Part shown: positions 24,481-32,295 of the stretch, piece after piece | Layout of the letters: each line of letters begins with the position of its first letter | How positions within the stretch are numbered: position 1 is the stretch's first letter | NCBI GenBank assembly: GCA_963845895.1 | Contig: CAWJTN010000001.1 | Location: 747,063-811,062, forward strand | Length of the DNA: 64,000 bases | DNA from: Candidatus Roizmanbacteria bacterium | GTDB lineage: Bacteria; Patescibacteriota; Microgenomatia; UBA1406; GWC2-37-13 | Reading direction: 5' to 3' | Program-made: the position numbers and the translations under genes | Notes under the pieces: generated by a model | Seen by the model: the letters and a program-made list of their open reading frames with translations, nothing else | The model's database searches: none | What the model was told of the DNA's origin: nothing

Positions 24481-27400
24481 ATGGAGATTAAAAACAGATT
24501 CATCAACTTTCGTTTATTATTCTGGGGTTTGATTTTTTTGATCTTCAGCAGTATTTTTTTTGTTTTTGTCCAAAGCACAGGATTGGTAAATTTACAAAAT
24601 TTGTTAAAGATAAATAGCGGAGCAAATAACAAATTAGTAACAAAAATTACTCCAAAAGCTATTCAGCAAGCTACTTTTCCCGGACCATTCTTAATTTCAG
24701 TAAAACGTGCTGACAACTCTTTTTCTTATGCAACCGTTATTGCTGGACAACTTGAAAGCGGTAAATATATTGGGGAAATAAAAGTGAGAATGCCAAATGG
24801 CAGTTACGGAATTTTTTCAAACATCAATGATTTTTCAAACTCCTATTATACGAAAAATGGAGGAGAGGAAAAAGTGGCGGTCGTTGATAATTTAATAACC
24901 GGATTAAAGTTAGGCGATGATTCTGTAATACCTGTAAAGTTTATTGATGCAAAATTGATTGATGAGAACCTGATAGGGAGTTTTCGCTTATTGATAACCG
25001 ATGAAAAAAAAGAAGTAACAGGGGAAACTGATTTAAAAGGTGGTTTGAGCAATGTCGGTCTGTATTCTTCTCTGGCTTCTGTTGACCAGATTTCAATAAC
25101 CGTAATGCGAGAACTGCTTAAACTTGTATATATTTTAAAGGGACTGCCCGAAGAAAATGTATTGGGTGTTTCAACAAGCGATAATCAGGATACTGGTCAA
25201 CAAAACCAAGCTCTTAGCTTTGCCATACCTTCTTATCTGATCAGTCGGGATCAAGTTAATGAATTAATTAGAATCCAATTACAACAAGGCATAGCTAACA
25301 TTGCGTTGAGTCAAATTCAGAATATCGGAAGTCAGATTCAAACATTAGTCCAAACTGCAATTACGAACCTAATTAATTCCGGCACCATACCAACAACAAG
25401 CGGAACTGCTGGTGCAACTGGTTCTGCCGGAAGTAAAGGAGATAAAGGAGACTCCGGAGCAGCAGGAGCTGCCGGAGCAAATGGTGCTGCAGGTGGAGCT
25501 GGAACGGCTGGCGAAACTGGTCCGACGGGTGCGAGCGGAAGCGGAGGAAGCGGCGGAGGAACTGGGGAGTCAGGATCAACAGGAAGTACAGGAGTAACTG
25601 GAGCAACTGGATCTTCCGGGCAGACTGGACCTACAGGATCTACTGGAGCTACAGGAATTACAGGAGTAACTGGTCCAACAGGTTCAACCGGAAGTCAAGG
25701 AGCTCAAGGAGCTACAGGTGTTACTGGATTGTCAGGTCCAACCGGTGCTACAGGTTCTACAGGGGCAACAGGAGCGACTGGATTTTCAGGTTCCTCAGGT
25801 CCTACAGGACCAACCGGGCCTGGGGGAGTTGGAGGATCAGGGCTCACAGGTCCAACAGGCCCAACCGGAGCAACGGGTTCATCTGGTCCTACAGGTCCAA
25901 CAGGCCCCACAGGCACAACAGGAGCTGCAGGTTCATCAGGGCTCACAGGTCCAACCGGGCCAACCGGAACAACTGGATCAACTGGCCCCACGGGTTCTAG
26001 TGGGCCTACGGGACCAACTGGTTCCACAGGAACTACTGGCAGTACAGGTCCTTCAGGTCCGACAGGCCCAACTGGACCAACAGGTCCTACTGGTGCTACA
26101 GGAGCATCTGGACCAACTGGACCAACAGGTCCCACTGGCCCAACAGGAACAACAGGTTCTTCAGGTACTTCAGGTCCTACCGGACCGACAGGACCGACAG
26201 GAGCTACAGGTGCAACAGGTTCTAGTGGTCCCAGCGGTCCTACAGGCCCGACTGGAACAGCCGGGCCAACCGGTCCAACGGGCCCAGGAGGTGCAGGGGG
26301 GTCCGGTGGTACAGGCCCAACAGGTACAACAGGCTCAACTGGTACAAGTGGCCCATCTGGACCAACCGGCCCAACAGGACCTACGGGGACGACAGGTGCT
26401 ACAGGCGCAAGTGGTCCAACAGGACCAACAGGAGCTACTGGTTCAACAGGAAATACAGGAATTCAAGGAACAACTGGAGCATCCGGAGATACAGGAATAG
26501 TAGGGACGACAGGTGGTTCGGGTCCATCTGGTCCAACAGGAACTACAGGAGCAACAGGAGCTTCAGGTCCTACAGGACCAACTGGTGTTACAGGAGTTAC
26601 TGGAGGAACAGGAGTTCAAGGAATTTCAGGTCCTACAGGAGCAACAGGTAATACAGGATCTCAAGGAGTAGTTGGTGCTACAGGAGACACAGGAATTCAG
26701 GGTACAATAGGATCCTCAGGTCCTACTGGCCCAACAGGTCCCACAGGCACAACTGGTTTTAGTGGACCTACTGGACCCACAGGACCTACAGGCACTACTG
26801 GAGCGTCAGGTCCTACTGGTCCAACTGGGCCTACAGGTCCAACAGGACCTTCTGGACCAACAGGTACTACAGGTGGATCAGGGCCTACTGGTTCAACTGG
26901 TTCTTCTGGCGCATCAGGCCCAAGTGGACCTACAGGTCCGACTGGACCTACAGGTACAACAGGTAGTTCTGGCCCAACCGGTCCCACAGGCCCAACAGGG
27001 CCTACAGGAACAACTGGTACTACAGGTTCATCAGGTCCCACAGGTCCGACAGGCACAACAGGCGCAAGTGGTCCAACCGGGCCTACAGGACCAACTGGTA
27101 CTACAGGTTCATCAGGTCCAACCGGTCCAACTGGGCCTACTGGCCCCACTGGAACTACAGGTAGTTCTGGGCCTATAGGTCCGACAGGTTCCACAGGTAT
27201 AACTGGTGCTTCTGGACCAACAGGACCAACCGGTCCGACTGGAACAACAGGTTCCACAGGCCCAACCGGACCCACTGGACCGACAGGACCCACTGGTTCA
27301 TCAGGGGGTTCAGGTCCTACGGGCCCAACCGGTCCAACAGGAGTTACAGGTAGTTCAGGACCGACAGGTCCAACCGGACCTACAGGACCAACAGGAACAA

Positions 27401-30400: not shown

Positions 30401-32295
30401 AGTTTATTATGTATTACAAAGTAAGAATGTCTTCAGCTTACACTAATTCCTACAGTTACAACCTCATGTATTATGGGGCTGACAATCTAACACAAGGATA
30501 CAGAGGAGTAGAGACTGAAGCTTCGCCGTTGGGAGGGATATGGTTTTCAAACAATGATTCAACCAGTCTGAGTTCAGCAACCAGTGCCATTGCAGGAACC
30601 CAGTGGATTGGTATGGCGGCTGTTGGAACAAACAGAGCTGCTGCTGTCTGTGGCCAAAACCCAGCAAACCAGACATACACGGGCAGTGGCACTAACGGTA
30701 CCACCTGGGCACCTCACTGGGCTTTAATGAGGATTGAGGCAAGAGATACAAGCACTAACGCTACTGGTGGTTTACACTTTTTCATAGATGCTGATAGTTC
30801 AAACGGAAGCAACCCCACAGAGTGTGGAAGTGGGATTACAGGCACCAATAATGCAGCAATTCCAACATCAATGCTGCGTCCTAATATGTGGTTTAATAAA
30901 CCTGTGAATAGTACTAACGGAACAATCTGGACGGCTTTTATCGACTTTTATGCATTTGTCCAGGATGATCCTTTGGGAGGAGTCACAAGTCAACCGTTAG
31001 TTGAAGGAGGAGATACTCAACCTGCACCGCTTCCCGCCTATGATCCGGTGATTGGAGCTGATCTGGCGGAAAACTATATTGTGGCTGATAAAGATAATAC
31101 AGGTCCAGGAGACATTGTTGTTCTGGATACTCAACCGGGCTATGCCAAACTGGCAGAAAGACCAAACGACAGAAGACTTTTGGGTGTAATTTCAGACAAG
31201 TCAAGCTTAATAATTGGACAGGTTGACTCAAGGACAACAACGATTTCGGTGGCTGGAAGAGTTAAAGTAAAAGTTAACGCTAATGGTGGTCCAATCAAAA
31301 TAGGAGATCCGATCACCTCGTCGGATATTCCGGGAGTCGGCATGAAAGCAAAAGATCCGGGTAAAATAATCGGTACGGCAATGGAGGACTGGGACGGAAA
31401 AACTTGTGATGAGACAACTGATAAAAACTACTGTATAAAATATATTATGGTTGATATAAATGTAGGTTATTATTTGGGCGATGAGGGAGACACTGCTTTG
31501 CTTGCTCAAAGAGATCAGATCACACTTGATGCATCTGAGTCAACCCCTCAAGCTAGCTTAAATACAGACTTTCAGGGAGTGTCGACATCTTCAGCCAATC
31601 TTGAAGGATCACCGTCGATCTTTACAAATATAAGCAACTTCATGAAGGATGTCGTCTTCAAGGGACCAGTTGAATTTATTGACTCGGTCAATTTCGACAA
31701 CTTGGTGAGTTTCTTAAACGATGTAGTCTTCAAGAAAAATGTCCAGTTCACAGGCAGTGTTGAGTTCAATAATGACACAGGAGGATACGCTGTCATAAAA
31801 GGGGGTAGCAGGTTTGTAGATGTCACCTTTGATCATGAATATAGAACGGAACCAATCGTAAATGTTAATCTAGTGGTGCCAAAACTGACGGAGAAAACTT
31901 TTGAAGAAAGGGTGATAAACGGAGACTGTGTTGCCAGCCTTGGAATTTCAGGCTGTCAAGATAAGTTGGCTAATGATCTTTTGGGTTCTGATCTAAAGTT
32001 TTTAATAACTGGAAAAAATACTCAAGGATTTATCATTCTTCTCAATAAATTAGCCCCATACGATATAGCCTTTTCCTGGAGTGCAGTATCGGTAAAGGAT
32101 GCGAAAACAAGCCAAAGTCAGTCGACTGACGAAATGTTAAAACAATTGAATATAAATGTTTCAACACCTAGTCCGACCTTAATTCAAATTAGCGCAACTC
32201 CAACACCGATACCACCAACACCAACTACAGTTTCAACAGCTCCCAGTCCTACACCGGAAAGTACCTCCACTCCCACGCCGAGTCCACCAGAATAA
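24481..32295 (+). CDS. Giant collagen-like (Gly-X-Y) surface protein, 2,604 aa
   Basis: N-terminal hydrophobic anchor or signal, then a ~300-aa head. About 1,444 aa of Gly-X-Y follow, dominated by GPT/GTT/GSS. The ~860-aa C-terminal region ends in a Pro/Thr-rich tail. Confidence 0.95.
25402..29733 (+). repeat. Coding Gly-X-Y triplet repeat region (period 9 nt, higher-order repeats)
   Basis: GGN-CCN-ACN-type codon triplets run throughout. There are occasional register breaks (e.g. GGSGLTG). All six frames are open, which generates artefactual ORFs. Confidence 0.95.

Follow-up and report, generated by a model that had tools for sequence, protein, structure and literature searches.

A giant collagen-like protein with lectin-like and phage-type tail modules as a candidate attachment fibre of a Patescibacteria bacterium

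In BclA, the collagen-like filament protein of the Bacillus exosporium, the count of Gly-X-Y triplets governs how long the filament is; BclA has tens of them (17–91) as against 480 in the protein described here. O-glycosylation of BclA on Thr is treated as established in work cited by PMC11923368. According to the same source, bacterial and viral collagens typically contain Thr-rich triplets, collagen triple helices nucleate at the C-terminus, and a general collagen folding code has been suggested in the form of salt-bridge "clamps" (PMC11923368). The peptide (GPT)10, in the account given there (citing Bann 2000), is a random coil on its own and folds only with glycosylated Thr. Collagen-like chains of up to 6,000 amino acids (aa) have been reported for bacteria in silico (PMC11923368); the longest human triple-helical domain, that of collagen VII, comprises 1,380 residues. 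In the Patescibacteria, or Candidate Phyla Radiation (CPR), the means of finding and binding a host are largely unknown beyond type IV pili (PMC11623550). Here we describe a gene of 2,604 codons at positions 24481–32295 (plus strand) of a 64,000-nucleotide (nt) stretch of a Candidatus Roizmanbacteria genome (contig CAWJTN010000001.1, positions 747,063 to 811,062; "the window" hereafter). We consider it rather probable that its product is a homotrimeric, probably O-glycosylated, cell-surface attachment fibre of this Patescibacteria (CPR, Microgenomates-like) bacterium. The observation itself and the anatomy of the protein are solid; attachment is the function that we infer, and it is plausible.

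The fibre gene is a single uninterrupted open reading frame (ORF) with an ATG start, encoding a probable membrane anchor, a head, a collagen-like stalk and a tail of lectin-like, candidate chaperone and lectin-like modules. Its G+C content (49.9% vs 39.7% for the window) is high because of the Gly, Pro and Thr codons. An initial annotation, made from the letters of the window, had placed about 1,444 residues of Gly-X-Y repeats (about 480 triplets) of this 2,604-aa ORF at 25402–29733, with occasional register breaks. A strict scan returned exactly these coordinates: the 480 triplets form three unbroken runs of 49, 52 and 379 triplets (aa 308–454, 457–612 and 615–1751; nt 25402–25842, 25849–26316 and 26323–29733), and the only breaks in register are two Gly-rich slips at aa 455–456 and 613–614. 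The stalk matches Pfam Collagen (PF01391) with E = 3.6e-173, which excludes chance as an explanation for the array, and its long unbroken repeats place the protein among the bacterial collagen-like proteins as defined by that feature. GPT is the most frequent triplet (208), before GTT (65) and GSS (51). As had been claimed, the X and Y positions are almost entirely Pro, Thr, Ser, Ala and Val: the X position is P, S, T, A or V in 444 of the 480 triplets and the Y position T, S, A or V in 448, with Pro at X in 233 triplets (49%) and Thr at Y in 329. Charged pairs are indeed absent. Charged residues number nine among 1,444 (0.6%; five Asp, two Glu, two Lys, no Arg and no His), six of them within the first 56 stalk residues, and the 379-triplet run has neither Lys nor Arg, its only charges being three Asp, and no hydroxyproline (Hyp).

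If fully helical, 1,444 residues at a rise of 0.286–0.29 nm would give a stalk of 413–419 nm. The estimate of about 0.4 micrometre made earlier thus holds as arithmetic, and is conditional on modification of the stalk and on a trimerisation nucleus, since (GPT)n reportedly needs glycosylated Thr in order to fold. CPR cells have diameters of about 0.2–0.3 micrometre, below this stalk length. With bacterial chains of up to 6,000 aa on record, our fibre is large, although no record-holder and not new by length itself; its collagen-like region exceeds that of collagen VII. Seven residues past the last triplet, a Cys pair (NCAGPSGWC, 29752–29778, plus strand) may act as an inter-chain disulfide clamp. 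Its position recalls the C-terminal cystine knots of some animal collagens; here the pair is not conserved in relatives, being absent in P0001 and L012. Further long ORFs run across the repeat in alternative frames and on the opposite strand (25718–26500 (+), 27206–28438 (+) and 27696–29345 (−), up to 549 aa); they arise because the repeat is poor in stop codons, and could be mistaken for genes.

The array could conceivably be no triple helix at all, and instead a flexible, heavily O-glycosylated, mucin-like tether. For this speaks a stalk devoid of Hyp and nearly devoid of charges; the Gly periodicity would then be a relic of repeat amplification, of which units of 9, 45, 90, 135 and 189 nt give evidence. 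The random-coil behaviour of unmodified (GPT)10 in the source cited above points the same way. At the DNA level, however, the units of 9, 45, 90 and 135 nt are only 65–70% identical, with many synonymous differences, and Gly has nevertheless been kept at every third residue over 379 triplets, which implies selection on Gly-X-Y itself. Pro occupies about half of the X positions, orthologues retain 130–390 triplets of differing sequence, and the candidate trimeric phage-type nucleus lies C-terminal to the stalk, where collagen folding begins. We therefore regard the mucin-like tether as quite unlikely and retain a triple-helical stalk in our reading.

A second concern is whether the repeat has been assembled correctly, or whether the gene is decaying and its real product far shorter or interrupted. 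The one recent tandem duplication (27419–27863, plus strand) consists of 2.4 copies of a 189-nt (63-aa) unit at 91% identity. It also contains the longest exact repeat, which is shorter than 150 nt (present at k = 120, none at k = 150), and it is the only stretch where the copy number could be mis-assembled. As the remaining repeats are diverged, and thus unique enough for paired reads, the total repeat length is credible. No frameshift occurs across the 4.3 kb, and the locus sits on a contig of 1,231,892 bp (1.23 Mb), according to the record of the neighbouring 542-aa protein. A Logan contig assembled independently from short reads (ERR10755944) is 100% identical to window positions 29348–41624 and stops 385 nt into the repeat. 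Exact look-ups in the gene index returned no record for the fibre protein or for three of the proteins encoded upstream, so that the 5' repeat junction has no independent counterpart for comparison. An independent 50-kb groundwater contig (L043), however, carries an intact relative of 3,241 aa with 304 + 88 = 392 triplets and shares the upstream regulator (see below) and the head with the fibre. The other relatives have from at least 92 to about 329 triplets and are interrupted by contig ends, N gaps, a frameshift or an in-frame stop, which speaks for an artefact or gene decay. Taken together, we judge an artefact in length or frame, or a decaying gene, to be improbable.

In the Gottesmanbacteria relative L012 (3352–6323), the roughly 329 triplets fall into two frames, with the change at nt 4569; either the repeat was misassembled there or the frameshift is genuine. 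In L002 (10846–10990) and L003, two runs of one study, an in-frame stop closes the head ORF, and after some 45 further codons the collagen repeat begins, still in frame with the head, before the contig ends; the gene could be split or a pseudogene, or the stop could be erroneous.

For head and tail, domain profile searches and structure prediction had been proposed with the initial annotation. Direct hidden Markov model searches with either region assigned no family, the tail being without a hit in Pfam, PHROGs, NCBIfam and the PDB sequences, whereas AlphaFold2 monomer models, built from family alignments and compared by Foldseek with the PDB and BFVD, resolved the tail into modules. The C-terminal 853 aa thereby comprise a ConA-like fold (M1), a domain of the Peptidase_G2/pre-neck-appendage type (M2) and an H-type-lectin-like fold. 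The earlier impression of "tail-fibre-like" segments was thus right at the fold level. M1 (29911–30963, plus strand; aa 1811–2161) was modelled as a jelly-roll of the ConA-like lectin/glucanase type at a predicted local distance difference test score (pLDDT) of 60–90. Its PDB matches range from E = 8.6e-7 to 1.5e-4 and include the botulinum toxin Hc domain (E = 8.6e-7), legume lectins (template modelling score, TMt, 0.55–0.62), ERGIC-53, a PL7 lyase and a beta-1,3-glucanase, at 8–12% sequence identity to the ConA-like structures. We consider M1 a candidate carbohydrate- or receptor-binding domain.

M2 (31054–31473, plus strand; aa 2192–2331), a beta domain of the Peptidase_G2, pre-neck-appendage and phage-cement type, was modelled with pLDDT > 90. 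In BFVD it matches best a "Preneck appendage protein" (E = 7.5e-10, TMt 0.61, 26% identity), followed by phage tail proteins, the whole set spanning E = 7.5e-10 to 1e-7 at 20–31% identity. The best PDB matches of the family profile are phi29 gp12 (E = 0.017) and its 163-aa C-terminal fragment (3gqh; E = 0.033), together with the chaperone domain of the Dpo31 tailspike. Peptidase_G2 (PF11962) matches 9 of 26 relatives (best E = 2.6e-7), and the Pfam scan of relatives also shows the XM1_gp53 minor capsid and Phage_cement_2 families. M2 is accordingly a candidate trimerisation and intramolecular-chaperone module on the strength of these models and profiles. It starts with the motif GADLAENY (31054–31077, plus strand; aa 2192–2199), written GA↓DLAENY in its alignment with S691↓D692-FAEYF of gp12, an alignment that sets in exactly where the fragment cleaved from gp12 starts; the gp12 cleavage position was deduced from PDB chain lengths (full chain 854 aa, fragment starting DFAEYF 163 aa). 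The A2193↓D2194 bond is hence the predicted scissile bond. Across 77 family sequences, conservation of the motif residues D, A, E and Y reaches 90% or more; in MEROPS family G2, the Asp and Glu of such a site have a catalytic role. In phage contigs of IMG/VR, M2 modules always form the last 124–131 residues of ORFs of 232–2,797 aa and start with [AG]AD[LI]AENY, mostly ADLAENY; this terminal place matches the position expected of an intramolecular chaperone.

Beyond M2, a Ser/Thr/Ala-rich linker of low model confidence (31480–31647, plus strand; pLDDT < 50) leads to a neck of VxF beta-repeats (31648–31767, plus strand; aa 2390–2429; VVFKGPVEF...FTGSVEF), which is probably beta-helical and would be trimeric. 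The H-type-lectin-like beta-sandwich (31774–32103, plus strand; aa 2432–2541), modelled with pLDDT > 90, carries a helical insertion of about 40 residues. By Foldseek it resembles the Helix pomatia and Helix aspersa agglutinins, SLL-2 and discoidin II (probability 0.92–0.99; TMt 0.51–0.58 for the single-domain lectins), as well as the receptor-binding domains of an R-pyocin fibre and the Pam1 tailspike; the Pfam family H_lectin (PF09458) does not match the fibre at E <= 0.1. The protein ends in a Pro/Thr/Ser-rich tail (32161–32292, plus strand; about aa 2561–2604) that carries no sortase signal: a C-terminal LPXTG-type motif is absent and the sole match to the loose pattern is IPTTS at aa 303. 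Both the VxF repeats and the sortase-free Pro/Thr end had been pointed out before. The tail further contains ten Cys with spacings consistent with five pairs, suggesting an extracytoplasmic location.

As the closest structural relatives of M2 and the H-lectin-like domain are phage tail proteins, and an insertion sequence (IS)-type integrase lies about 9 kb away, the gene might belong to a prophage or tailocin and act on a virus-like particle. We hold this to be most improbable. The protein has an N-terminal membrane segment, phage structural genes were not found among the scanned window ORFs of at least 150 aa, PHROGs yielded no match and INPHARED a single weak one, IMG/VR has the M2 module only and never the whole tail, and synteny with non-phage chromosomal genes is kept across candidate phyla.

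The fibre is no singleton, its tail belonging, by sequence comparison, to a family of thousands whose members mostly lack collagen. An exhaustive HMMER search with tail residues 1–803 returned 9,042 proteins with E <= 1e-3, of which 105 reached E <= 1e-30, where a word-indexed search had given only three tail relatives; for scanning loci the narrower alignment A4 was used, A3 and A2 being too diverse. About 17 cluster representatives carry the entire tail of about 750 aa. They are 905–5,399 aa long, and nearly all of them combine it with an "INFQGKVVN" N-domain and long Thr/Gly/Ser/Ala repeats of beta type in place of collagen. Among the top 152 proteins, M1 occurs in 16, M2 in 147 and M3 (aa ~2390–2541, the neck plus the H-lectin-like domain) in 142. 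The tail thus appears to define a large and apparently undescribed Patescibacteria family, in which collagen stalks, judged from these sequences, are rarer than beta-repeat stalks and are a swapped-in alternative. Tail identities interleave the stalk types (collagen-type L001 is closest to beta-repeat L015, at 62%), and L043 holds both types of stalk, so that stalks have been exchanged on a conserved tip cassette. The nearest relative is named "collagen-like protein, partial" by NCBI. Four members (P0005, P0006, P0007 and P0010) have a Peptidase_M23 domain added after the H-lectin-like domain, and a C-terminal segment of L043 looks SH3b-like by eye (GWYNVVY...GWVSGTYV); such ends suggest tips directed at cell walls. 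The 5,399-aa P0012 and other non-collagen members of 2,000–3,300 aa contain near-identical blocks of about 600 aa with the motif GxMYYNxxxxKFRCYQxxAWTDCIG.

These comparisons bear on the idea of a passive nap or spacer, similar to the BclA layer of Bacillus spores, which would hold off particles, phages or predators or set surface properties without specific attachment. The GPT-rich uncharged stalk matches BclA-type naps, and lectin-like folds also occur in structural or enzymatic proteins such as the PL7 lyase and the beta-1,3-glucanase among the M1 matches. A uniform coat fits less well than a targeting device, however, with two distal folds of carbohydrate-binding type next to a module typical of phage receptor-binding proteins, relatives ending in an M23 peptidoglycan hydrolase or SH3b-like-looking segment, a regulator with an extracellular sensor upstream, and a tip cassette that is kept while stalk length and type are swapped. 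We thus view a purely passive layer as unlikely and favour the attachment fibre.

At the other end of the protein, the hydrophobic segment noticed earlier (24514–24570, plus strand; aa 12–30, preceded by K4, R6 and R11) has the highest Kyte-Doolittle mean in the whole protein. It is probably a signal-anchor, because orthologous heads share one hydrophobic segment without a conserved AXA/signal-peptidase site; the alternative is cleavage after VQS31. A prepilin peptidase gene lies nearby; the class III signal peptide of type IV pilins, G↓F(T/S)LxE, was not found at the fibre N-terminus, and a type IV pilin was therefore ruled out. The head that follows (24574–25401, plus strand; aa 32–307, about 275 aa, with a conserved core at about aa 47–300) is an orphan domain without relatives in Pfam, PHROGs, NCBIfam or the PDB sequences. 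The GluRS_N (spurious) and Geopilin (E ~0.5) matches in direct searches with head and tail were discounted. Head orthologues (P0004, L012, L018 and L042–L045) share 27–36% identity, and the head occurs only ahead of collagen stalks, fused in frame to Gly-X-Y (L012, L018, L043–L045).

The surroundings of the gene are conserved as well. Directly upstream lies a membrane sensor-regulator with HTH_17 and dCache_1 domains (22482–24401, plus strand; Pfam), and it has this place in all collagen-type loci open to comparison (L002, L012, L018 and L043). Downstream, the fibre gene is followed by three genes on the opposite strand, encoding a 542-aa polytopic membrane protein (32298–33926), a 656-aa polytopic membrane protein with C-terminal TPR (33929–35899) and a serine hydrolase of the Beta-lactamase2 family (35896–36834). 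This three-gene synteny is found in at least ten metagenome-assembled genomes (MAGs), including Gottesmanbacteria and Levyibacteriota. The 542-aa protein is a divergent candidate for a GT-C glycosyltransferase of GT39/PMT_2-like type: its first loop contains an invariant HRIYYDEDRYL in the orthologue comparison, one of ten orthologues matches PMT_2 (E = 4e-4), precomputed PF13231 matches exist for five orthologues, and a Nealsonbacteria GT39 protein matches it with E = 3.5e-10. Adjoining these partners is a glycosylation cluster (36873–46531, genes on either strand) with two PMT_2 GT-C proteins, two GT2 glycosyltransferases, an NAD epimerase/dehydratase and a DegT aminotransferase, a set that could plausibly supply lipid-linked sugars for glycosylation outside the cytoplasm. 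The cluster is interrupted by a pentapeptide-repeat gene (39046–39690) and an IS-type rve integrase (41566–42678). Many MAGs with this Patescibacteria-type locus (L004–L007, L009, L010, L013–L015 and L020) are titled "uncultured Gammaproteobacteria" or "Pseudomonadales" in third-party annotation (TPA) records, titles that are probably placeholders or wrong taxonomic labels.

An anchored fibre with a collagen stalk and a distal adhesin or receptor-binding head, as first proposed, is supported by the N-terminal segment, the Gly-X-Y array and the tail folds. We propose the following mechanism. The chain would be exported by Sec, with the N-terminal signal-anchor keeping it tethered. While still unfolded, the Thr/Ser-rich stalk would be O-glycosylated on the outside of the membrane by the GT-C-type enzymes encoded next to it, which would draw on lipid-linked sugars from the neighbouring cluster; this step is proposed because of the GT39/PMT_2-like partner and the adjoining cluster. 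The C-terminal phage-type modules, emerging last, would trimerise and nucleate the triple helix, which would close like a zipper in the C-to-N direction; the resulting semi-flexible stalk would measure about 0.4 micrometre, more than the cell does. In fold, these modules are similar to trimeric domains of phage fibres, cement proteins and H-lectins; the models themselves are monomeric. Autocleavage of the G2-type domain at A2193↓D2194, as in phi29 gp12, may come next and would unmask or release the distal lectin domains. Finally, the tip would bind glycans or the cell wall of a host or partner cell, or a surface, and so provide an ultra-small episymbiont with reach and grip. The order of these steps fits both the C-terminal nucleation of collagens and the need of (GPT)10 for Thr glycosylation.

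Several observations weigh against this picture. In the Foldseek comparison of M2 with the PDB, capsid cement proteins (E = 4e-3) rank above gp12, which falls outside the top 50; the PDB profile matches of M2 are marginal, and Peptidase_G2 scores the window protein at 16.4 bits (E = 0.0061), below the Pfam cut-off of 25. Unlike the strictly terminal chaperone domains of phages, M2 is internal in the fibre, with about 270 residues after it, and cleavage may therefore be absent or have a different meaning. The GT-C assignment of the 542-aa protein is weak: by hhalign, neither this protein (probability 0.8%) nor the 656-aa partner aligned significantly with the PMT_2 proteins of the window, and the 656-aa partner gives TPR matches only. 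The segment aa 12–30 may be a cleaved signal peptide in place of an anchor, and most family members have an ordinary cleavable signal peptide (..VFA↓ATG). The full repeat length rests on a single assembly, because the Logan contig of the same organism breaks inside the repeat. More generally, we infer expression, trimerisation, glycosylation, cleavage and binding of the fibre from sequences and models.

In a more far-reaching combination of these elements, the tail would be a domesticated phage receptor-binding cassette (lectin, self-cleaving chaperone, lectin) that is carried on exchangeable stalks and serves as a dedicated "fishing line" for locating and holding host cells. The half-micrometre, charge-free collagen stalk would be stabilised solely by Thr glycosylation, the chaperone would arm the tip by cutting itself at GA↓DLAENY, and the GT-C enzymes of the neighbouring genes would act as O-glycosyltransferases specific to collagen. 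We put this joint reading forward tentatively, as one that has the odds against it. If true, it would add a second host-recognition system of the CPR besides type IV pili, and a collagen from nature whose folding requires neither salt bridges nor Hyp. Independently of it, the locus is a concrete and conserved candidate for contact between episymbiont and host, with a fibre that would exceed the cell, a modular tip of sugar-binding type and swapped stalks, to which it adds a dedicated sensor-regulator and glycosyltransferase-like partners. The stalk is a natural extreme for testing whether Thr glycosylation and a C-terminal nucleus suffice for folding, and annotation of the tail family (9,042 matches) would name thousands of "hypothetical" giant proteins. 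Our literature search for collagen-like or tail-fibre-like proteins of the CPR turned up nothing relevant, and we could not find a previous description of this combination of architecture, conserved locus and a family of thousands of proteins.

The fibre gene is chromosomal. Elsewhere in the window lie genes for type-IV-secretion-like proteins, a set of restriction-modification genes, and genes for LexA, M16 and M23 peptidases, a prepilin peptidase, glycosyltransferases and dockerin proteins. A target of a diversity-generating retroelement was ruled out, no reverse transcriptase having been found among the scanned window ORFs of at least 150 aa. About 8 kb upstream of the fibre gene, at 12073–16929, we found a protein with a pilin domain of type IV secretion systems (T4SS), a TraG/VirB4-like P-loop ATPase and an M23 peptidase; defence genes at 5634–9232 comprise an EcoRI-type adenine methyltransferase, GmrSD-N with an HNH endonuclease, and DUF2130. 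Five large genes at 48843–62302 have a G+C content of 43–45% vs about 35%. Three of them combine dockerin with a PQQ/BamB-like beta-propeller; the other two carry dockerin, an apiosidase-like (GH140-type) domain and "Collagen_bind_2", one of them together with CBM6/35. The "Collagen_bind_2" label usually accompanies hydrolases of that family, and little should be read into it. The presence of dockerins in a CPR genome implies either a cohesin to pair with or acquisition by horizontal transfer.

Compared with known systems, the fibre joins a BclA-like stalk and a tip of phage-type parts on a cellular, membrane-anchored protein. The likeness to BclA, claimed from the outset, stands for the composition of the stalk only: BclA and its kin (BclB/ExsJ, C. 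difficile BclA1–3) likewise have a (GPT)n-dominated and nearly uncharged collagen-like region, GPT accounting for 208 of the 480 triplets here. It does not extend to a BclA-type C-terminal domain or an exosporium context. The trimeric C-terminal domain of BclA nucleates the helix, a function for which we propose a counterpart in the fibre. In BclA, however, the N-terminus serves for targeting to the exosporium and the C-terminal domain is C1q/TNF-like, whereas the fibre has a membrane segment, an orphan head and a ConA-like, G2-type and H-lectin-like tail; no BclA-type match was found in Pfam, NCBIfam or the PDB sequences, nor any C1q/TNF structure among the top 50 fold matches of the tail models. 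BclA belongs to a sporulation setting, while the fibre locus lacks sporulation or exosporium context. As the terminal domains differ, a BclA orthologue was ruled out.

The streptococcal Scl1/Scl2, together with Lcl, Bucl and Pasteuria Pcl, are characterised bacterial adhesins that present a globular domain for attachment on a surface collagen-like stalk of variable length, as we propose for the fibre. Scl proteins have charged triplets, an N-terminal variable head and a C-terminal LPXTG, in contrast to the reversed polarity, few charges and missing sortase motif of the fibre. A sortase-anchored adhesin of the Scl type was ruled out, given that a C-terminal LPXTG is lacking and 0.6% of stalk residues are charged. 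With Riftia cuticle collagen and the fibre collagens of giant viruses, the stalk has in common that Thr takes the place of Hyp at Y and that stabilisation by glycosylation is expected (PMC11923368). Those proteins come from unrelated organisms and have unrelated flanking domains, and for the fibre it is the neighbouring genes only that suggest glycosylation.

The H-type lectins (HPA, the C-terminal domain of discoidin, SLL-2) and the tips of R-pyocin and phage fibres have the same beta-sandwich fold as the distal domain, and known examples are trimeric; the fibre domain differs in its lack of a Pfam H_lectin match and in its helical insertion of about 40 residues. The closest parallel for M2 is phi29 gp12 of the MEROPS G2 (PF11962) type, which is a virion protein, whereas the fibre is the membrane-anchored product of a chromosomal gene, with sub-threshold similarity and an M2 placed internally before neck and lectin-like domain. 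Functionally comparable chaperone domains are those of the S74 type in K1F endosialidase and T5 pb1. The fibre and gp12 are alike in sequence profile, Pfam family and fold, the D-x-A-E-x-Y of the fibre stands at the place of the S691↓D692 autocleavage site of gp12, and in both proteins the domain lies C-terminal to a long fibre that is trimeric in gp12 and predicted to be so here.

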